A stretch of DNA of 64,000 nt, taken from contig JAEHCO010000003.1 in NCBI GenBank assembly GCA_020697715.1, positions 160,001-224,000 on the forward strand, in the 5' to 3' direction. The notes beneath the pieces are model-generated. The model was given only the letters and a program-made list of their open reading frames with translations. It ran no database searches and was not told the origin of the DNA. Origin of the DNA: Methanobacteriota archaeon. GTDB taxonomy: Archaea > Thermoplasmatota > Thermoplasmata > SG8-5 > JAGLSY01. Made by a program: the position numbers and the translations under genes. This document shows, one piece after another, positions 9,756 through 18,360 of this stretch; position 1 is the stretch's first letter, and each line of letters begins with the position of its first letter.

Positions 9756-10472
9756 ATGACCGAGGGGAAAGTGGAGCAGGCAGTGGTCTTATGCGGGGGA
9801 CTTGGAACCAGGCTTCAGTCGGTTTCCAAGGATATTCCCAAGTCCATGATGCCCATTGATGGGCGCCCCTTCCTCGAGATACTGGTGTCGCAGTTCAAGA
9901 ATCACGGCATCACTCGCTTTCTTTTCCTCACAAGTCATCTTCACGAGGTCATCGAGGAACACTTTGGAGATGGCTCTGCTTTCGATGTCGATATTGAATA
10001 TTCAACAGAGCCAGAGCCCATGGGGACTGGTGGAGCTCTGGAACTTGCCAAGGACAAGCTGGATGATGTTTTCTTCCTGGTCAATGGCGATACCATACTT
10101 CCAATTGATCCGACAATGCTCATTGCTGGATTCTACAGACAGAAATGTCTTGGATATGTCACGGTATATGACAATCACGAGGAGATCGCGGATAAAAATA
10201 TCATAATAGATGGAAAGGGCCAGGTATTGCTCTACACTAAACGGACATCTCTGCCGGAGATGACCGGGGTGGAAGCTGGCATGTCCATTCTGGATAAGAA
10301 GGTGCTGAAGATCTGCAAGAAGGAAAGCTATTCCCTGGAAATGGAGGTCTTCCCGAAATTAATAAATAATGGCCGTCTCTTTGGTTTATTAACGAGCCAG
10401 CGTTTCTACGACATTGGAACACCCGAAAGGCTGGAACTTGCAAGGAGTGTATTGAATGACCTTGGTTGGTAG
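9756..10472 (+). CDS. hddC: Sugar-phosphate nucleotidyltransferase (HddC-like heptose-1-P guanylyltransferase)
   Basis: LCGGLGTRL, PK, EPEPMGTGGA, NGD, FYDIGTPE; clustered with hddA, gmhA and gmhB. Confidence 0.75.
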   Translation: MTEGKVEQAVVLCGGLGTRLQSVSKDIPKSMMPIDGRPFLEILVSQFKNHGITRFLFLTSHLHEVIEEHFGDGSAFDVDIEYSTEPEPMGTGGALELAKDKLDDVFFLVNGDTILPIDPTMLIAGFYRQKCLGYVTVYDNHEEIADKNIIIDGKGQVLLYTKRTSLPEMTGVEAGMSILDKKVLKICKKESYSLEMEVFPKLINNGRLFGLLTSQRFYDIGTPERLELARSVLNDLGW

Positions 10473-11463
10473 AGCACCAGTTAGAATAAGTTTCGGGGGC
10501 GGAGGAACGGACCTGGCCTCTTATTACAAAAAGCACGGAGGAGTCGTGGTCAGCGCGGCCATAAACAAATACTTTTACACAATTCTGGAACTCAGGCAGG
10601 ACGAGCGCATCCAGATAATTTCTTCGGATCTACAGCTCAATCACACCGTGGAGGATTGCTACAGCCTGAAGTACGGCGAAGGACTGGACATACCAGTTGG
10701 TGTGCTGAAGCATATGCATGTCCGCAGAGGCATGAACCTTCTCATGGCATCCGAGATACCACCAGGCACTGGCCTGGGATCCTCGGGAGCAGTTACGGTC
10801 AATATAATCAATACGATCAATCACCTGGAACATCTGAAGATGACCAAGAAAGAGCTGGCGGAGATGGCATACCACATAGAATACAATGAGTTGGGTCTGC
10901 CCATTGGCAAGCAGGATGAATACGCATCTGCTTTTGGAGGACTAAATTTCATCACATTTGACAGGTCTGGCGACACCACGGTCGAGCCACTTCATGTTCC
11001 AAAGGAAGTGCGCATGAGGATGGAGGACGATGTCATGCTCTTCTTCACTGGCAGAACACGCCAATCATCCAAGATATTGAAGAGCCAGGACTCCTCGACC
11101 AAAGAAGATACGGGTGAAGTCGTCGAGCGCCTTCACGAGATAAAAAATATCGCTTTCAAAGTCAAGAAAGCGATAGAGATAGGCGACCTGACCGAGATGG
11201 GTCACCTTCTTGATATGAGCTGGCAGAATAAGAAGAAGCTGGCCAAAGGCATTAGCAATCCTCGTATAAACAAGATATACGAGACAGCTAAGAAAGAAGG
11301 AGCCGTGGGTGGTAAGCTGACCGGCGCAGGCGGCGGAGGATACATGATGCTCTTCTGCCACAAGAAATACCAGCCAGCAGTCAAAAAAGCAATGCATAAG
11401 GAAGGTCTTTCATTACTTGATTTCAAATTCGACCACAAGGGCGCGAAGACCATGCTGGGATAA
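10456..11463 (+). CDS. hddA: GHMP kinase (D-glycero-alpha-D-manno-heptose-7-P kinase-like)
   Basis: RAPVRISFGGGGTD, PPGTGLGSSG, GKQDEYA, GKLTGAGGGG. Confidence 0.85.
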   Translation: MTLVGRAPVRISFGGGGTDLASYYKKHGGVVVSAAINKYFYTILELRQDERIQIISSDLQLNHTVEDCYSLKYGEGLDIPVGVLKHMHVRRGMNLLMASEIPPGTGLGSSGAVTVNIINTINHLEHLKMTKKELAEMAYHIEYNELGLPIGKQDEYASAFGGLNFITFDRSGDTTVEPLHVPKEVRMRMEDDVMLFFTGRTRQSSKILKSQDSSTKEDTGEVVERLHEIKNIAFKVKKAIEIGDLTEMGHLLDMSWQNKKKLAKGISNPRINKIYETAKKEGAVGGKLTGAGGGGYMMLFCHKKYQPAVKKAMHKEGLSLLDFKFDHKGAKTMLG

Positions 11464-11591
11464 ATTATCTATGTCTAGACAATTAATCCATACCGGGATA
11501 GATTATCCTGATACGGATGATCAATCCACGCTGGGATAATCTATATCTAATACAACGATCATGATACATTGGAATAAGGGGACGTGATGAT

Positions 11592-12182
11592 TTGGACGAG
11601 TTCAGAAAAAAATTCATTGATGGCTATTTGAAAGACGTGATAGACTGTCTGGAGGATTACAGGAAGAACCCGGAGTTCTTCGACGAGCTGGCAACCATAT
11701 TTTTGGATGCCAGGAAGCGAGGTAATACTGTCTATTTCATGGGTAATGGGGGAAGCGCGGCAACAGCCAATCATTTTGTCTGCGACCTCGGAAAGGGTAC
11801 GATCGTGGAAGGATATCCAAGGTTCAAGGTTTTATCATTATCGGACAATATCCCGATGATGCTGGCATGGGGAAATGATGCTTGTTATGAGGATATATTC
11901 GTCGAGCAGTTGAAGAACTTGATGAACCCTGGCGATGTAATCGTCGGAATCAGTGGAAGCGGAAACTCTGGCAATGTTCTCAGAGCCATAGAATGGGCGA
12001 ATGAGAATGGCGGAATAACCGTCGGCCTCACAGGTTTTGCAGGTGGCAAACTGAAAGACATGGCCAAGCACGTGCTGGTCGTTCCAATCCACTACATGCA
12101 GAAGATCGAGGACATCCACATGCTGGTCGACCATCTTGTGACCTCGCTCATCAGGGAAGAGGAGATGTCCAACCTTGAATAA
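11592..12182 (+). CDS. gmhA: Phosphoheptose isomerase (SIS domain)
   Basis: GNGGSAA, ND..Y..IF..Q, GISGSGNS.NV, GLTGF.GG.L, IEDIH. Confidence 0.85.
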   Translation: MDEFRKKFIDGYLKDVIDCLEDYRKNPEFFDELATIFLDARKRGNTVYFMGNGGSAATANHFVCDLGKGTIVEGYPRFKVLSLSDNIPMMLAWGNDACYEDIFVEQLKNLMNPGDVIVGISGSGNSGNVLRAIEWANENGGITVGLTGFAGGKLKDMAKHVLVVPIHYMQKIEDIHMLVDHLVTSLIREEEMSNLE

Positions 12183-12675
12183 GGCCGTTTTTTTAGATCG
12201 TGATGGAGTAATCAATCGCCTGAATCTGGGCAAGTACGTGACCAAGTGGGAGCAGTTCGAGTTCCTTGAAGGCGTGCTGGACGCGATCAAGGATCTGGCA
12301 GCTGCCGATCTTAAAATAATTGTTATTACGAATCAATCCGCTATCAACCGAGGATTCATGACCGACTACGAACTGGAAGTGATACATGAGCATATGGTGG
12401 ATGCTATCCAGGAAGCTGGTGGACGTATAGACTCTATCTACCACTGTCCGCATGCGCCTCATGAGGAATGCACCTGCCGGAAGCCGGAGCCTGGGATGTT
12501 CGAGAAGGCGATAGGGGACCATGATGTTGATGTGACCCGATCATGGTTCGTCGGAGACTTCCAGAGCGATGAAGAGGCAGCCGCGAGAGTTGGCCTGAAA
12601 TTCAAGCTGGCCGAGGGCGATGGTGGGTTGAGAAGGGCGGTGGATGAGATCTTGAGGGAAAGTCAATCCCCATAA
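12175..12675 (+). CDS. gmhB: Heptose-1,7-bisphosphate phosphatase (HAD)
   Basis: FLDRDGVIN, TNQS, CPH...CTCRKP.PGM, VGD. Confidence 0.9.
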   Translation: MNKAVFLDRDGVINRLNLGKYVTKWEQFEFLEGVLDAIKDLAAADLKIIVITNQSAINRGFMTDYELEVIHEHMVDAIQEAGGRIDSIYHCPHAPHEECTCRKPEPGMFEKAIGDHDVDVTRSWFVGDFQSDEEAAARVGLKFKLAEGDGGLRRAVDEILRESQSP

Positions 12676-12745: not shown

Positions 12746-12753
12746 TTTATATA
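12746..12753 (+). promoter_or_regulatory. Candidate TATA box for the leader-tRNA-gatED transcript
   Basis: TTTATATA about 50 nt upstream of the 12801 hairpin; implies a start near 12775-12780. Confidence 0.45.
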
Positions 12754-12800
12754 TCATAATCATTTTGTGGATTTGACTCAAATAGTCAGTATATCACAAT

Positions 12801-12852
12801 AGCCCCGAAGTGTGAAGACGGAGCCAAGCTCCTTACTTTACACAACAGGGCT
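12801..12852 (+). ncRNA. Long interrupted hairpin with tRNA-Gln-like acceptor stem and CAA apical loop
   Basis: AGCCCCG/CAGGGCT (one mismatch), GTGTGAAG/CTTTACAC, GGAGC-CAA-GCTCC. Confidence 0.55.
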
Positions 12853-12876
12853 TCTGTAAATAAAACAAATCAATAC

Positions 12877-12950
12877 AGCCCCGTTGTGTAACGGTAGCAC
12901 GGGAGGTCTTGCACCTCCAGGCATCAGTTCGATTCTGATCGGGGCAACCA
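12877..12950 (+). tRNA. Non-canonical tRNA-Gln(UUG)-like gene with encoded CCA
   Basis: Full cloverleaf: AGCCCCG/CGGGGCA, D arm GTGT-AACGGTA-GCAC, anticodon arm GGAGG-TCTTGCA-CCTCC, T arm ATCAG-TTCGATT-CTGAT, A73, CCA. Deviations: A1.A72 mismatch, C33, C37. Confidence 0.8.
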
Positions 12951-12975
12951 TACCTATTAGCAAAAAGTGAGAAAA

Positions 12976-14796
12976 ATGATAGACCCCGAGAAAATCGACT
13001 ACAGGAAACTGGGCTTCAAGGCGGGCCTCGAGATACACCATCAGCTCAAGTCCTCCCGGAAGTTATTCTGCCACTGTCCAGCCGAGTTGTCGGCCGACCT
13101 GCAGAAGAACCCGGATTTTACATTCCACAGGCGCTTCAGGGCCGTGATGGGCGAGATGGGGGACTTCGACCCCGGTATGCTGGTCGAAGTTGAAAAGGGC
13201 TATCTGGTCATCTACCATGCGAATGACGCCCATGTGTGCACTTACGAGATGGACGATACTCCTCCATTCTGGCTGGACATGGAATCCGTGGATACTGGTT
13301 ATAAGCTGGCCAGTCTTTTCAATTGCGAGTCGCCAGCCGAGGAAGTTGTCATAAATCGAAAGCAGTACTTGGACGGTTCGATAACCACTGGTTTCCAGCG
13401 TACGATGATAATCGCCAGGGACGGTCATGTGAAGCTTGCCAGTGGCAAGAAGATCACTATCACGAATATCCTTATCGAAGAAGACTCGGCCAGGAAGATC
13501 AAGGCCGAGGATCGCGGTCGAACAGTCTATTACAATCTGGATAGGCTGGGTGTTCCACTTACAGAAATTATAACAGATCACAATGAGATCGACACGCCCG
13601 AGCTTTTAATTGAGGCCATAAAGATGATCGGTATCAATCTCAGATTAACGGGACTGGGTCGTCGCGGTATCGGTGTCGGCAGACAGGATGTGAATATCTC
13701 GATCGATGGTGGTGACAGAGTGGAGTTAAAGGGAGTTCAGGATCTTTCTTTATTGACAAAGTTCTGCGCCCACGAGGTTTGCAGACAGCACGCGCTCATC
13801 GATATTCAATCTAAATTAGCCAGCTTGAATCTGAAGAAGGAAGACTTCGAGCATAATTACATAGATATTACTCATTTATTCAATGATCTGGGTGAGGGAG
13901 AATCAGCCTTCGCGGTCAGGCTGCCCGGTTTTGAGAATATCCTCAAAACCGAAGTCCAGCCAGGCAAGGACTTTGGATATGAGATATTCGAGAAATGCAA
14001 TTTAATTACTGGCATCCTGTACGACGAAATGTTCCATTCGGGCGAGATGAGTCCGGGATCCATTCGCATGATGAACAGGTCGGATGATCTTTTCATCAAT
14101 AAGGGACAGGATGGCGAAATTCGAGCCATCCTGAAACTCGCACCAGGAGATGGATACGTAGCTGCCAGGGGTAGTGAGAAACCAGTTCTCCATACCCTGA
14201 AGAAGACAGTGGAGAGATGCAAGCAGGCCTTTGATGGCGTGCCCCAGGAGACAAGGCGAGTGTTGCCAGATGGTAATAACGAGTTCCTGCGCGTGATCCA
14301 TGGAAAAGGCCGTCTTTACCCGGATACGGACACTCCGCCAGCCCCCTATTCGATGGAGAAATTCCACGCGATAAAGGAAAAGGGCTGGACAAGACCACTT
14401 GACCTTCTCCAGAAATATGAGGAGAAGGGATTGAAATTGCCAATGCTGGAACTTATTATCCGCGATCAGAAGGTTCCATTGTTCCAGAAGTTGGTGGACG
14501 AGGCCAAGGTTCCAGTCTCTCTGGCTATTCGATTGACTGTGGAAATTCCCCGGTGGCTGAGGAGGAAAGGTCATGATTCGGAGATAATCAGCCAATTCAC
14601 AATGATCAGTATTGCTGGCAATGTCATGTCAGGAAAGCTACAGACAAAACACCTGCGCCCGATGATGAAGGAAATATGCATGGCTCCCAAGGAGAACCAG
14701 AGTTCGATAGTGACCAAATGGGTGGATCAGAACAATAAAAAGGATGAAGCGGGCGATGTAAGGGACAAATGGCCAGATGATGCGAGGTGTGTTTGA
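12976..14796 (+). CDS. gatE: Glu-tRNA(Gln) amidotransferase subunit E (divergent)
   Basis: GLEIHHQL..RKLFCHCP, RKQYLDGSITTGFQRT, EEDSAR, LDRLGVPLTEI, RRGIGVGRQDVNISI.GG.RVELKGV, VPQETR, RLYPDTDTPP. Confidence 0.9.
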   Translation: MIDPEKIDYRKLGFKAGLEIHHQLKSSRKLFCHCPAELSADLQKNPDFTFHRRFRAVMGEMGDFDPGMLVEVEKGYLVIYHANDAHVCTYEMDDTPPFWLDMESVDTGYKLASLFNCESPAEEVVINRKQYLDGSITTGFQRTMIIARDGHVKLASGKKITITNILIEEDSARKIKAEDRGRTVYYNLDRLGVPLTEIITDHNEIDTPELLIEAIKMIGINLRLTGLGRRGIGVGRQDVNISIDGGDRVELKGVQDLSLLTKFCAHEVCRQHALIDIQSKLASLNLKKEDFEHNYIDITHLFNDLGEGESAFAVRLPGFENILKTEVQPGKDFGYEIFEKCNLITGILYDEMFHSGEMSPGSIRMMNRSDDLFINKGQDGEIRAILKLAPGDGYVAARGSEKPVLHTLKKTVERCKQAFDGVPQETRRVLPDGNNEFLRVIHGKGRLYPDTDTPPAPYSMEKFHAIKEKGWTRPLDLLQKYEEKGLKLPMLELIIRDQKVPLFQKLVDEAKVPVSLAIRLTVEIPRWLRRKGHDSEIISQFTMISIAGNVMSGKLQTKHLRPMMKEICMAPKENQSSIVTKWVDQNNKKDEAGDVRDKWPDDARCV

Positions 14797-14855
14797 ATGA
14801 AGTCGCCATTGCTCCTCATTCAACTCGAAACCTCCAAAATTATGGAGGTTTCCCA
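14794..14855 (+). promoter_or_regulatory. Two-hairpin intercistronic element sequestering the Shine-Dalgarno sequence, copy 1
   Basis: TGAATGA...TCATTCA stem starting at the gatE stop, then AAACCTCCA-AAATTA-TGGAGGTTT; a second copy lies at 31865-31929. Confidence 0.75.
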
Positions 14856-16259
14856 ATGAGTGAAGAATACCAACCACCAGATGGTTACAGAGGTCCTCTT
14901 CTTGAGCGATTGGTCGAGGCCAAGATACGCACGTGGTCAGTGATCCAGGTGAATAAGACTGACGGATCACATTATGAGGGTGTGCTTCTGCCACGTTCCA
15001 TCCACACTTCTGATGATTATCTTTCCATCAAGGTGGACACTGGCTATAATATTGGCATCCAGCTTCCCGATGATGCCACAATAAAAGAGGTCGGCTACAA
15101 TGCGGGATCGTATCAAATTCCTGAGAAGATAGTGGAGAAGACAGCTGGACTTCCAAATGTCACGCTACTGGGCACAGGAGGAACAGTGGCCAGTCGTCTT
15201 GATTATCGAACTGGAGCCGTACTACCAGCCTTCACCCCATCCGAGCTTTTCTCCGCAGTTCCCGAGCTCATCGACATATGCAATTTAACTCCAAAGACCC
15301 TTTACCAGATACTTTCAGAGAACTTCTGCCCCGAATACTGGATAAAAACAGCTGAGGCAGTGGCCAAGGAGATCGAGGGCGGAGCAGATGGTGTGATAAT
15401 CGGTCATGGCACCGACACAATGAGCTATTCTGGCTCGGCACTTTCATACATGTTCCAGGACCTTCCAGTTCCAGTGGTCATCGTGGGCTCGCAGAGAAGC
15501 AGTGACCGCCCATCCAGTGATGGGCCCATAAACATGATGAACGCCACCACACTGGCCGCCTATGGTGATTTGGCAGAAGTGGTCGTCGTCATGCACGGGA
15601 CGACGAGCGACAATTACGACCTCATCCACAGAGCGACAAGGGTGCGCAAGATGCACAGTGCGCGGAGAGATACATTCCGCACTGTCAGTGATACCCCATT
15701 GGGCCAGATCAAGGATAAGGAGATCAAATACTTCAAGGACGATATCAGACGCCGCAGCCCGAAAGAGGACTTCCATCTGAACACCAAGATGGACGAGCGC
15801 GTGACCATGTTGTATTTCTACCCTGGCATGGAACCGGATGTCATGCACGCGGTCATCGACAAAGGCTATCATGGAATTGTCATGATCGGCACCGGATTGG
15901 GACATGTTGGCAAGCCCATGTATGAGGCTCTGGACAGAGCGCAGGAAGAAGAAATTCCTGTGGTCATTGTCGTCCAGCCAATGTTCGGCTTCTCACATCT
16001 TAGGGTTTACGAAACGGGCCGTGACATGCTTGCCCGTGGAGTGATAGAGGGCAAGAACATGCTTCCCGAGGCAGCACTTCCAAAACTCATGTGGGCGCTT
16101 GGCCAGACACAGGATGTGAAGGAAGTGGAAAAGATCATGCACACCAATCTCGCGGGCGAGATCACACAAAGAGAGCCATACAGTGGATTCCCAATATTCC
16201 AGGGTGGCGTTCCGAACTTCTATGATAATTATCGGAATGTCGATAGGCTGGAGAAGTAA
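14856..16259 (+). CDS. gatD: Glu-tRNA(Gln) amidotransferase subunit D
   Basis: N-terminal KVDTGYNIG domain, GTGGTVASRLDYRTGAV, HGTDTM, GSQRSSDRPSSD, RVRKMHS. Start placed at ATG 14856 after GGAGG. Confidence 0.93.
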   Translation: MSEEYQPPDGYRGPLLERLVEAKIRTWSVIQVNKTDGSHYEGVLLPRSIHTSDDYLSIKVDTGYNIGIQLPDDATIKEVGYNAGSYQIPEKIVEKTAGLPNVTLLGTGGTVASRLDYRTGAVLPAFTPSELFSAVPELIDICNLTPKTLYQILSENFCPEYWIKTAEAVAKEIEGGADGVIIGHGTDTMSYSGSALSYMFQDLPVPVVIVGSQRSSDRPSSDGPINMMNATTLAAYGDLAEVVVVMHGTTSDNYDLIHRATRVRKMHSARRDTFRTVSDTPLGQIKDKEIKYFKDDIRRRSPKEDFHLNTKMDERVTMLYFYPGMEPDVMHAVIDKGYHGIVMIGTGLGHVGKPMYEALDRAQEEEIPVVIVVQPMFGFSHLRVYETGRDMLARGVIEGKNMLPEAALPKLMWALGQTQDVKEVEKIMHTNLAGEITQREPYSGFPIFQGGVPNFYDNYRNVDRLEK

Positions 16260-16530: not shown

Positions 16531-17598
16531 ATGATGGATCTCTATGAGCTCGTTGAAAGTATCGTCGTCATGCTAATTGGCTGGATCGACCAGTGGGTCC
16601 CAGATCAATTAGACTTTCTGATATCGCCTACTAGCATACATGCTTACGTGGTATTGGGAATGGCCGCCGTGATACTGGTGATATGTCTTTTGAATGTCGT
16701 CGTAATGATATGGATAGAACGTAAGTTCATCGCCAGGTTGATGGATCGCCGAGGTCCAACAGAAGTTGGTTTCATGGGTTTCCTTCAGAATGTCGCTGAT
16801 GGTCTGAAGCTCTTTCTCAAAGAGGTCATCACCCCACAGGGTGTCGATCGCTGGGTGTATGTCATGGCTCTCGTGCTGTACATCGGTTCCTCCATCACCG
16901 TATTAGCCCTTGTCCCAATGAGTGACAGGTTCTTCATGGCAAATGTAGAAGGCGGACTTTTCATGATATTCGCCATATTCACCCTGGCTCCCTTTTTCAT
17001 ATTCATAGCTGGCTGGTCGCAGAATAACAAATACTCCTTGATCGGGGGAATGCGTTCAGCCGCCCAGATGATCAGTTACGAAATACCACTTATGCTATCA
17101 GTTATAGGTGTGATATTGATGGCTGGCTCCCTGAGCATATCCGCGATAGTCAATGCCCAGAGCAGTATCTGGTTCATCATTCCTTCATTCATAGGATTCT
17201 TTGTTTTCATAATTGGTGTACTGGCTGAAGTCGAAAGAATTCCTTTCGATCTTCCAGAGGCAGAAGCCGAGTTGGTCGAGGGATGGACCACGGAATACGG
17301 TAGTATCAGGTTCGGCCTGATAATGTTCGTTTCCTATCTTCGTGGCTATGTCGGTTGTGCACTGGCGGTCTTCCTCTTCTTCGGAGGATGGCTTGGACCC
17401 TTCACCGCTTACATGCCACCAGAGGCCTGGTTCCTCATCAAGGTCTATATCCTTTTCATGATCTTGGTCTGGCTTAGAGCCTCCGCACCAAGGATAAGGA
17501 TAGATCAGCTTATCCAGATTGGCTGGAAGAGGTTATTGCCTTTGGCCATGCTCAATATAGTGATCGCAGTTATATTTACAACAATGGGGTGGATTTAG
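16531..17598 (+). CDS. nuoH: Complex I-like subunit H
   Basis: ERKFIAR..DRRGP, ADGLKLFLKE, NNKYSLIGGMRSAAQMISYEIP, RIPFDLPEAEAELVEG. Confidence 0.96.
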   Translation: MMDLYELVESIVVMLIGWIDQWVPDQLDFLISPTSIHAYVVLGMAAVILVICLLNVVVMIWIERKFIARLMDRRGPTEVGFMGFLQNVADGLKLFLKEVITPQGVDRWVYVMALVLYIGSSITVLALVPMSDRFFMANVEGGLFMIFAIFTLAPFFIFIAGWSQNNKYSLIGGMRSAAQMISYEIPLMLSVIGVILMAGSLSISAIVNAQSSIWFIIPSFIGFFVFIIGVLAEVERIPFDLPEAEAELVEGWTTEYGSIRFGLIMFVSYLRGYVGCALAVFLFFGGWLGPFTAYMPPEAWFLIKVYILFMILVWLRASAPRIRIDQLIQIGWKRLLPLAMLNIVIAVIFTTMGWI

Positions 17599-18360
17599 AT
17601 GGCTGATATCAAAATAAGAACATCATCCGATAGGCCTGATACCCGAGATCCAGGATTTACCACTGGTGCATCTGGATTCGTCAAGCTTGTCGTTAAGCCA
17701 ATGGGAGTTTCCATGAAGCAATTCCTAAGGAGCTTGAAGCGCCCAACTACCTTGATGTATCCGAGGGAAAGACCGGATGGTCAGGTGGAGCTGAAACCCG
17801 AGAACAGGTTCGGTGTCGAAGGGTGCTGGGAATTCTTTAGAGGATGTCATGGTCTGGATGAAAACCTATGTGTGAGCTGTGGGCTCTGTGAAAGGATATG
17901 CCCCAATAATTGCATCACACTGGTCGAATATGAGGGCAGGAAGCTTCCGCAAGTGGATCAGAGTCGATGTATGTTCTGCACTCTGTGTGTGGAGATATGT
18001 CCGAAAGACGCACTTGGTATGACCCATGATTTTGATATTTCCGGATTCACCAGGGAAGAACTTCTTTCCACGGTTGCGGACCTGATAGCCAGGAAAGATA
18101 GGATGGCGAGGCCAGCTCTACCTGCCAAGGTCATAGCATTCCCTGTTATCGATCTGGAAGGCTGTATTGGCTGTGCCAAATGTGCGAAGGAATGTCCACC
18201 TGGGGCTCTGGAAATGTATGAGCCAGCAGATCAGGTCGTTCCAGAAGGCAAGAAGCCGAAGAAGAAACCAAAGCTCAATCGTGAGATATGTGTTTCATGT
18301 GGCATCTGTGAGTCACAGTGTCCAAAAGATGTTATAGATATGAAGGAGGTAAATCCATGA
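17599..18360 (+). CDS. nuoI: Complex I-like subunit I with extra C-terminal 2[4Fe-4S] domain
   Basis: TLMYP...FRG.H; four CxxCxxCxxxCP motifs; Lys-rich KKPKKKPK insert. Confidence 0.88.
   Translation: MADIKIRTSSDRPDTRDPGFTTGASGFVKLVVKPMGVSMKQFLRSLKRPTTLMYPRERPDGQVELKPENRFGVEGCWEFFRGCHGLDENLCVSCGLCERICPNNCITLVEYEGRKLPQVDQSRCMFCTLCVEICPKDALGMTHDFDISGFTREELLSTVADLIARKDRMARPALPAKVIAFPVIDLEGCIGCAKCAKECPPGALEMYEPADQVVPEGKKPKKKPKLNREICVSCGICESQCPKDVIDMKEVNP

Follow-up and report, generated by a model that had tools for sequence, protein, structure and literature searches.

What is a tRNA gene with an abnormal anticodon loop and an open first base pair doing directly in front of an amidotransferase, in an archaeon that also encodes a glutaminyl-tRNA synthetase (GlnRS)? 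The question is raised by a 64,000-nucleotide (nt) stretch of a Methanobacteriota archaeon of the order SG8-5, class Thermoplasmata (NCBI GenBank assembly GCA_020697715.1, contig JAEHCO010000003.1, positions 160,001 to 224,000). In this stretch, called the window here and numbered from its first letter, a non-canonical tRNA-Gln(UUG) at positions 12877 to 12950 of the forward strand precedes gatE and gatD, the genes of the tRNA-dependent amidotransferase GatDE. We refer to this tRNA and its orthologues as tRNA-Gln*. Comparing the locus across related genomes, we arrive at a probability of about one half that tRNA-Gln* is the own substrate of the adjacent GatDE, in a side channel that runs parallel to the GlnRS route. 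Three parts of this proposal, namely, charging by glutamyl-tRNA synthetase (GluRS), amidation by GatDE, and poor use of tRNA-Gln* by the ribosome, are what we infer from the comparisons described below. The genome that holds the window (G000) comprises 2.12 Mb in 34 contigs and is 93.8% complete; most of the genomes compared with it are incomplete metagenome-assembled genomes.

The tRNA gene and its orthologues

In the whole 64-kb window, ARAGORN reported just one tRNA, Gln(ttg) at 12877 to 12950 on the forward strand, and the Rfam tRNA model RF00005 matched it at 45.8 bits (gathering score, 29; E = 4.5e-08), with 1-72 as the only nonstandard pair. Direct reading agreed with both programs and bore out a first-pass annotation of the window, which had described a 74-nt cloverleaf with an encoded CCA, an A1.A72 mismatch, and C33 and C37 in the anticodon loop, ending 25 nt before gatE. 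Positions 2-71 to 7-66 of the acceptor stem are paired, A1 lies opposite A72, and A73 and the encoded CCA follow. The D, anticodon, and T stems are fully paired, and the anticodon loop reads U32-C33-UUG-C37-A38. U33, a purine at position 37, and a paired 1-72 are features of elongator-type tRNAs that matter for use by elongation factor 1alpha (EF-1alpha) and the ribosome, and all are absent from tRNA-Gln* of the window. Among the 31 tRNAs that ARAGORN detected in G000, U33 was present in 30 and a purine at position 37 in 29, in keeping with the near universality that the first-pass annotation had assumed; tRNA-Gln* was the only one without U33. CCA is also encoded by three other G000 tRNA genes. 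No Thg1-like gene (PF04446), which could provide 5′-end repair of the 1-72 mismatch, was found in G000.

To collect orthologues, 41 relatives were searched at the DNA level, and both a genome collection and metagenomes were scanned. Eight tRNA-Gln* sequences, from genomes G000, G001, G002, G003, G004, G017, and G018 and from contig L090, were aligned (alignment A2); the two scans contributed two further loci with tRNA-Gln* (L090 and L091) and two without it (L092 and L017). Across the eight orthologues, the stems pair in all 160 cells of the alignment, and 10 of the 20 stem pairs have changed on both sides. None of 500 shuffles matched the observed pairing or covariation score, and shifting the partner columns lowered pairing to 31 to 48%. 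A1, A72, and A73 are invariant in all eight orthologues, none of which has A1-U72. The anticodon is YUG throughout (UUG in six and CUG in two, with Y34, U35, and G36 all kept), and the elbow motifs GG (G18G19) and T-loop TTCGA.T are invariant or nearly so. As read from the alignment, the 15-48 pair is standard in only three of the eight. CCA is encoded only in G000 and G003, the remaining orthologues carrying TCA or TCC.

The pairing, the covariation, and the invariant A1.A72 together indicate that the oddities are not the product of random decay, as the first-pass annotation had argued. A decaying pseudogene or an assembly error might be suspected because several near-universal tRNA positions are violated together. 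However, stem pairing is 100% with 10 compensatory pairs among eight orthologues, and the same odd bases recur in independent assemblies and in metagenome contigs, so that assembly error is excluded and this explanation as a whole is hardly credible. For comparison, all 25 canonical tRNA-Gln sequences compared from the order have A1-U72, U33, and G37. Judged by sequence comparison, tRNA-Gln* is a genuine, structurally constrained third tRNA-Gln gene that is confined to part of order SG8-5.

Conservation of the two odd regions differs. The first-pass annotation had expected both to recur in homologous loci: this proved right for the first base pair, for which a canonical A1-U72 version is absent from all eight orthologues, but not for C33 and C37. 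The loop UCUUGCA, which carries C33 and C37, occurs in G000, G003, G001, and G017, whereas the loops CUCUGAG (G002), AUCUGAU (G004), and GUUUGAC (G018 and L090) have U33 and A37 and look ordinary. UCUUGCA is identical in four species in which the synonymous sites of gatE are saturated (dS, the synonymous divergence, is 2.8 between G000 and G001), and the stem below it has changed by compensation, which argues for selection on the loop rather than drift.

A survey of 401 genomes of the class with a loop-plus-T-arm pattern for C33 loops returned 18 matches in 17 genomes, versus 8 in a reversed control. True tRNAs with a C33 loop were limited to G000, G001, G003, G017, and G036, the last being a distant relative from another family of the class. 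One further match, in another register, fell in a tRNA-Ala that is unrelated and belongs to a tRNA array of G141, and the other 12 were not tRNAs according to ARAGORN and Rfam. The G141 array (L132:1091-2754) is itself unusual: it packs at least 12 tRNA genes densely on the same strand, several of them atypical in sequence, and looks like a mobile-element tRNA array. Two further ideas about the origin and structure of tRNA-Gln* were set aside. Viral contigs scanned with the anticodon-arm motif yielded 28 stretches, none of them tRNA-Gln*; two lay in a phage tRNA-Ile, on the other strand. A six-base-pair anticodon stem was considered as a special feature, as positions 32 and 38 are Watson-Crick compatible in all eight orthologues through four pair types, yet the same holds for 11 of 31 ordinary G000 tRNAs. 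Rould et al. reportedly described in 1991 an extended anticodon stem in GlnRS-bound tRNA-Gln; we do not use this as support.

Inheritance with a remodelled GatDE

When a covariance model of tRNA-Gln* built from alignment A2 was run on the 22 genomes of the order, exactly 7 of them gave a score of 86 to 97 bits, and every other tRNA-Gln reached 72 bits at most. These are exactly the seven genomes that carry a tRNA-linked clade of GatE, and tRNA-Gln* occurs in none of the 15 other genomes of the order. The proposal of the first-pass annotation that the tRNA travels with a GatDE variant is thereby upheld. Within one family (f4), two genomes have both tRNA-Gln* and the GatE clade, and 11 have neither. 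The linkage is also physical. In G000, G003, G001, G002, G004, G018, and L090, tRNA-Gln* precedes gatE by 25 to 55 nt, and the interval contains no T-run; in the window, 25 nt separate its end at 12950 from the gatE ATG at 12976, and no T-run terminator follows the tRNA. Most other G000 tRNA genes examined have a T-rich run directly 3′. No tRNA was found within about 1.5 kb of any canonical gatE locus examined, and gatE and gatD were adjacent in nine of nine loci. One lineage (G017/L091) has a different arrangement, in which tRNA-Gln* stands alone, 1.7 kb from gatE: its own TATA box lies near −40, and a T-run follows immediately 3′. A glutamine-synthetase-like gene of 503 amino acids (aa) lies between the two on the opposite strand (L091:1335-2846, minus strand). 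Such a gene is divergent from gatE in two lineages with a full-length GatE tail, L091 and L092 (L092:635-2050).

The window gatE (12976 to 14796, forward strand) encodes a 606-aa protein with its catalytic core kept and its C-terminal tail truncated, and gatD (14856 to 16259, forward strand) encodes 467 aa from an ATG at 14856, a start that agrees with homologues. GatE scores 355.3 bits with TIGR00134 (cut-off, 319.55) and 422.6 bits with NF003107, below the cut-off of 456 for that profile; GatD scores 504.1 bits with TIGR02153 (cut-off, 324) and matches the Pfam families Asparaginase, Asparaginase_C, and GatD_N. Against the solved GatE chains 1zq1_C and 2d6f_C, the window GatE scores 302.5 and 259.4 bits. 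Of 89 alignment columns with at least 90% conservation among 28 other GatE sequences, 76 are kept in all seven tRNA-linked proteins, and the remaining 13 show conservative differences or gaps. Both genes are under purifying selection in the GlnRS-bearing genus, as judged from G000 versus G003 (ratio of nonsynonymous to synonymous divergence, 0.036/0.395 or about 0.09 for gatE and 0.015/0.538 or about 0.03 for gatD).

The relationships of this GatE were examined in a quick maximum-likelihood IQ-TREE run on 35 GatE sequences with a midpoint root and with Shimodaira-Hasegawa-like approximate likelihood ratio test (SH-aLRT) support only; the duplicate row RS_9_71 (identical to G002) and the fragmentary GatE of G004 were omitted. 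Clade one consisted of 19 canonical Thermoplasmata sequences. The second clade held 16: 7 "second copies," mostly found beside a canonical GatE in the same genome, 2 Asgard sequences, and the 7 tRNA-linked ones. A long stem (branch length, 1.08) leads to the tRNA-linked group, and the two Asgard sequences form its sister group (SH-aLRT, 97), with 41 to 42% identity, versus 31 to 38% for canonical Thermoplasmata. The gene order of the second clade, gatE-gatD rather than gatD-gatE, is likewise that of the Asgard loci. The first-pass annotation had suspected that the tRNA and GatDE came from bacteria as a module; this found no support, as the nearest tRNAs under the covariance model are the order's own canonical tRNA-Gln (66 to 72 bits) and the nearest GatE outgroup is Asgard. 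It had also singled out the motif RKQYLDGSIT in the window GatE. The motif is present but not specific to this protein: RKQYLDGSI(T/P) is common to all 16 second-clade sequences, whereas RK.V.DGSN is the form in the 19 canonical ones and RK[IQ]VIDGSN that in both solved chains. Second copies beside a canonical GatE were observed in G005, G008, G022, G027, G029, and G031 (loci L063, L052, L064, L065, L066, and L062). These loci have no tRNA directly upstream of gatE, the only tRNA found being a tRNA-Met in L063, downstream and on the other strand; gatD is divergently transcribed in the G005 and G008 loci.

The shortened GatE C terminus, another feature of the first-pass annotation, was substantiated. 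In the window protein, 154 residues follow the RxYPxTD motif, compared to 177 to 212 in the 19 canonical GatE sequences. Pfam finds only GatB_N in it; GAD and GatB_Yqey, which are also matched by canonical and Asgard GatE, give no match. The last 45 to 50 aligned residues are absent from the proteins of G000, G003, G001, G002, and G018. In all, the subclade of the window is short of about 40 residues at the C terminus. Truncated tails (143 to 155 residues after RxYPxTD) occur in exactly the six lineages that have tRNA-Gln* directly upstream of gatE; full-length tails (188 to 189 residues) occur in G017/L091, L092, and L017, in which the tRNA is 1.7 kb away or not within 2.4 to 2.5 kb. This coincidence of tail loss and an adjacent tRNA probably reflects a single evolutionary event. 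According to one study, GatDE recognizes the first base pair and the D-loop of its substrate, and the tail domain of GatB/GatE is implicated in D-loop recognition (PMC2811023).

The direct glutamine route and a possible side channel

Archaea are described as making Gln-tRNA only via GatDE, and archaea, or almost all of them, as being without GlnRS; the peculiar archaeal tRNA-Gln has been suggested to have kept GlnRS out (two 2022 reviews, PMC9499178 and PMC8762117). G000 encodes a bacterial-type GlnRS (G000:C32:22304-23878; L019:832-2523, minus strand) that scores 700.6 bits with TIGR00440 (cut-off, 425.8) and aligns over its full length to Escherichia coli GlnRS (674 bits). With residue positions read against PMC2978374, the length of the unpairing loop is kept, as are the Arg402, Arg410, and Arg412 positions, and a Tyr takes the place of Leu136. 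G000 also has two canonical tRNA-Gln genes (UUG and CUG), with A1-U72, A73, the loop C-U-YUG-G-A, no encoded CCA, and T-run terminators, as well as an archaeal GluRS, an asparaginyl-tRNA synthetase (AsnRS; 418 bits versus a cut-off of 342.6), and two glutamine-synthetase-like genes. The window gatE is its only GatB_N-family gene. The first-pass annotation had advised looking for separate canonical tRNA-Gln genes, a second gatDE, or a GlnRS, and the presence of the first and the last makes a dedicated tRNA/GatDE pair plausible. Because direct routes to both Gln-tRNA and Asn-tRNA are present, GatDE would be redundant in G000 by its textbook role. A need for GatDE in Asn-tRNA formation is ruled out by the AsnRS of G000 and the Gln anticodon of the adjacent tRNA, and the two glutamine-synthetase-like genes rule out a tRNA-dependent route as the only source of glutamine.

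Of 41 Thermoplasmata genomes searched, 19 have a GlnRS that scores above the family cut-off, and in many of these 19 gatE/GatDE was not found. Two side observations concern other tRNA-Gln genes: around the GlnRS of G023 lie three tRNA-Gln genes, of which two have the bacterial discriminator base, G73, and G007 has a tandem tRNA-Gln(CUG) pair (L108:1503-1800), the second copy of which has a degenerate 3′ end. The presence of GlnRS raises the possibility that tRNA-Gln* is directed at this enzyme rather than at GatDE. GlnRS must melt the 1-72 pair, which a pre-opened first pair would suit, and the RNA could then be a substrate or a mascRNA-like regulator that binds the synthetase. The full-length match of the G000 enzyme to its E. 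coli counterpart, with the unpairing-loop length and the three arginine positions kept, is consistent with this idea, as is the conservation in all eight orthologues of G36, which GlnRS reads. In addition, G036 has a similarly odd tRNA-Gln(CUG), with A1.C72, the loop UCCUGUA (C33 and U37), and an encoded CCA (L023:2081-2156), about 230 nt downstream of its GlnRS, so that all four C33-loop genomes with positive GlnRS status (G000, G001, G003, and G036) fit. The distribution of tRNA-Gln* argues otherwise. Of the order's genomes with GlnRS, the 12 without the tRNA-linked GatE clade yielded no tRNA-Gln*, and four genomes without a detected GlnRS have it. What flanks GlnRS instead, at most 5 kb away on the same contig, is a canonical A1-U72 tRNA-Gln, in 10 of the 15 genomes of the order that bear GlnRS. 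We therefore regard a GlnRS-directed RNA as very unlikely.

We favor the reading in which tRNA-Gln* is a substrate of the adjacent GatDE. tRNA-Gln* would be transcribed from its own promoter together with the fast-evolving second-clade GatDE. The archaeal GluRS would load glutamate onto it, the YUG anticodon being kept in all orthologues, and the adjacent GatDE would amidate this glutamate to give Gln-tRNA-Gln*. GluRS/GlnRS-type enzymes read positions 34 and 35, and the archaeal nondiscriminating GluRS is without a G36-recognition loop, as stated in PMC2978374. The tRNA-Glu of G000 has G1-C72 and a 9-nt D-loop. Because the GatE tail implicated in reading the D-loop has been lost, rejection of tRNA-Glu would rest on the first base pair, G1-C72, to which an open A1.A72 would, in our own view, offer the strongest contrast. 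The open first pair, C33, and C37 predict a poor substrate for EF-1alpha and the ribosome, and Gln-tRNA-Gln* may feed inefficient back-up decoding or a nonribosomal use. The retained YUG, the catalytically intact GatDE, and the tight coupling of the two in gene order, transcript, and inheritance point to tRNA-Gln* as a natural GatDE substrate. Since ordinary Gln decoding in G000 is covered by GlnRS and two canonical tRNA-Gln genes, and given the oddities of tRNA-Gln*, the pair looks like a side channel.

Several observations weigh against this reading. The four orthologues with U33 and A37 could decode normally. The archaeal GluRS does not read G36, yet this base is conserved, which suggests that decoding or GlnRS constrains position 36. 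A1-U72 is a reported GatDE determinant (PMC2811023), and the A1.A72 mismatch could equally be an antideterminant for GatDE. G002 and G018 have canonical tRNA-Gln genes and no detected GlnRS, a pattern in which GatDE may also act on canonical tRNA-Gln and need not be dedicated to tRNA-Gln*. In G004 (83% complete) and G017 (70% complete), neither another tRNA-Gln nor GlnRS was seen; if this absence is real, tRNA-Gln* must serve translation there, including in G017 with its C33/C37 loop. Finally, because the genomes are related, the co-inheritance count reflects few independent events.

tRNA-Gln* might accordingly be an ordinary decoding isoacceptor of the indirect pathway through GluRS and GatDE, co-transcribed with the enzyme for dosage, with a ribosome that tolerates A1.A72 and C33/C37. 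The U33/A37 loops, the Gln anticodon with G36 in all eight orthologues, and the gene content of G004 and G017 favor such a role, as does G002, in which the anticodon of tRNA-Gln* is CUG and a canonical CUG species was not found. Yet G000, G001, and G003 possess both canonical isoacceptors and GlnRS, and their C33/C37 loops are nonetheless identical. The absence of U33 sets tRNA-Gln* apart from the other 30 tRNAs of G000, and its first pair and loop set it apart from all 25 canonical tRNA-Gln sequences compared in the order. The G004 and G017 assemblies are incomplete, and at least one tRNA-Gln gene must be missing from that of G004, as its lone CUG species cannot read CAA. We consider ordinary decoding a serious but somewhat unlikely alternative.

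A bolder form of the GatDE-substrate reading is possible, if on the unlikely side. Here tRNA-Gln* would be nonproteinogenic: charged and then amidated by the tail-less GatDE, and kept off EF-1alpha and the ribosome by its open first pair and C33/C37, it would deliver Gln or Glu to a nonribosomal acceptor or act as a sensor of charge state. Its origin would postdate the takeover of Gln decoding by a bacterial GlnRS in this lineage of archaea.

Transcript context and relation to known systems

The sequence around the tRNA and the two genes contains several further elements. A TATA-like box, TTTATATAT, at 12746 to 12754 on the forward strand is the likely archaeal promoter of the unit; it lies in a leader block (12746 to 12857) that does not differ between G000 and G003, and in the alignment it coincides with a TATA box of G001. 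A palindrome, TGACT-N5-AGTCA, is found at 12774 to 12788. It is followed by a leader hairpin (12796 to 12857, forward strand) with a predicted folding energy of −28.1 kcal/mol (z = −6.5), which none of 200 shuffles matched. From position 12801, the hairpin carries AGCCCCG, the 5′ acceptor strand of tRNA-Gln*, and it is possibly the remnant of a duplicated tRNA. At the same position, G001 has a 27-nt acceptor-like minihelix (L004:1455-1481). Between gatE and gatD lies a 59-nt spacer (14797 to 14855) that is specific to G000. By direct reading, an 8-bp hairpin (14828 to 14851, forward strand) covers the Shine-Dalgarno sequence GGAGG of gatD (14844 to 14848) and may have a regulatory role. The stop codon of gatE and the start codon of gatD overlap (NTGA) in seven of eight relatives, an arrangement suggestive of translational coupling.

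This arrangement invites the explanation that tRNA-Gln* is an uncharged, cis-acting, tRNA-like leader, either a processing signal through which RNase P and RNase Z free the gatED mRNA or an autoregulatory binding site for GatDE. The absence of a terminator between the tRNA and gatE, the short spacer of 25 to 55 nt in six lineages, the leader block shared by G000 and G003, and the extra structured upstream element with its acceptor-like 5′ strand in G000, G003, and G001 all speak for a function in the transcript. In G017/L091, however, the tRNA has its own TATA box and T-run, and between it and gatE lies a gene of the opposite strand; tRNA-Gln* is thus not always part of a regulated transcript, and this disfavors a purely cis-regulatory mimic, the second possibility raised by the first-pass annotation. 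Moreover, all eight orthologues keep YUG and the elbow motifs (GG and T-loop), which a decoy or processing signal would not need. We consider the cis-acting leader unlikely.

The neighboring genes vary between genomes, and no conserved consuming enzyme was found near tRNA-Gln* and gatED. Upstream (10456 to 12675), the window contains heptose-pathway genes, including an HddA-like kinase and a GmhB-like phosphatase, a set shared with G003 only. Downstream (16531 to 18360) lie nuoH and nuoI, of which nuoH is also found in G003 and G001.

Comparison with known systems places the GatDE-substrate reading among several partial parallels. With the archaeal indirect pathway of Methanothermobacter thermautotrophicus and Pyrococcus abyssi, in which a nondiscriminating GluRS, GatDE, and tRNA-Gln cooperate, the locus shares GatD, the GatE core, the Gln anticodon, and A73. 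It differs in A1.A72 instead of A1-U72, in the truncated GatE tail, in DGSI instead of DGSN, in the order gatE-gatD with the tRNA in front, and in its coexistence with GlnRS. The nonproteinogenic tRNA-Gly of Staphylococcus, which serves the peptidoglycan bridge, is likewise an extra isoacceptor in which elements for translation have been replaced and the acceptor function kept; according to PMC9976931, however, it has lost EF-Tu determinants in the T-stem rather than the first pair or U33/R37. The transferases that consume it are known, whereas tRNA-Gln* belongs to an archaeon in which no consuming enzyme was found among the neighbors. Direct and indirect routes also coexist, with discrimination at the first pair, in Helicobacter pylori (GluRS1/GluRS2 and GatCAB) and Deinococcus (GlnRS and GatCAB), as described in PMC9976931 and PMC2978374. 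In those bacteria, the synthetase is duplicated or GatCAB serves Asn; here, it is the tRNA that is duplicated and specialized, and AsnRS is present. Finally, mascRNA with GlnRS and the tRNA-mimic operators of mRNAs resemble tRNA-Gln* in the cloverleaf, an odd anticodon loop, adjacent aminoacylation genes, and possible excision from a longer transcript (PMC9976931), but tRNA-Gln* conserves its anticodon triplet, and one lineage keeps it as a stand-alone gene. The staphylococcal tRNA-Gly and mascRNA are the nearest functional analogies, and neither is homologous to tRNA-Gln*. A literature search, which lay outside subscription journals and supplements, found no description of an archaeal GlnRS, of a tRNA-Gln with A1.A72, or of a tRNA gene fused to gatDE.

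Taken together, one sublineage of an order with GlnRS-bearing archaea couples a remodelled GatDE to a remodelled tRNA-Gln. The oddities of this tRNA are conserved, lie at both of its functional ends, and coincide with replacement of the main pathway. The locus therefore offers a natural case in which to ask how a tRNA and its enzyme respecialize after replacement of the main route and whether any archaeal tRNAs function outside translation. If tRNA-Gln* and GatDE do form a naturally insulated tRNA/amidotransferase pair, they would be of interest for engineering orthogonal translation parts.

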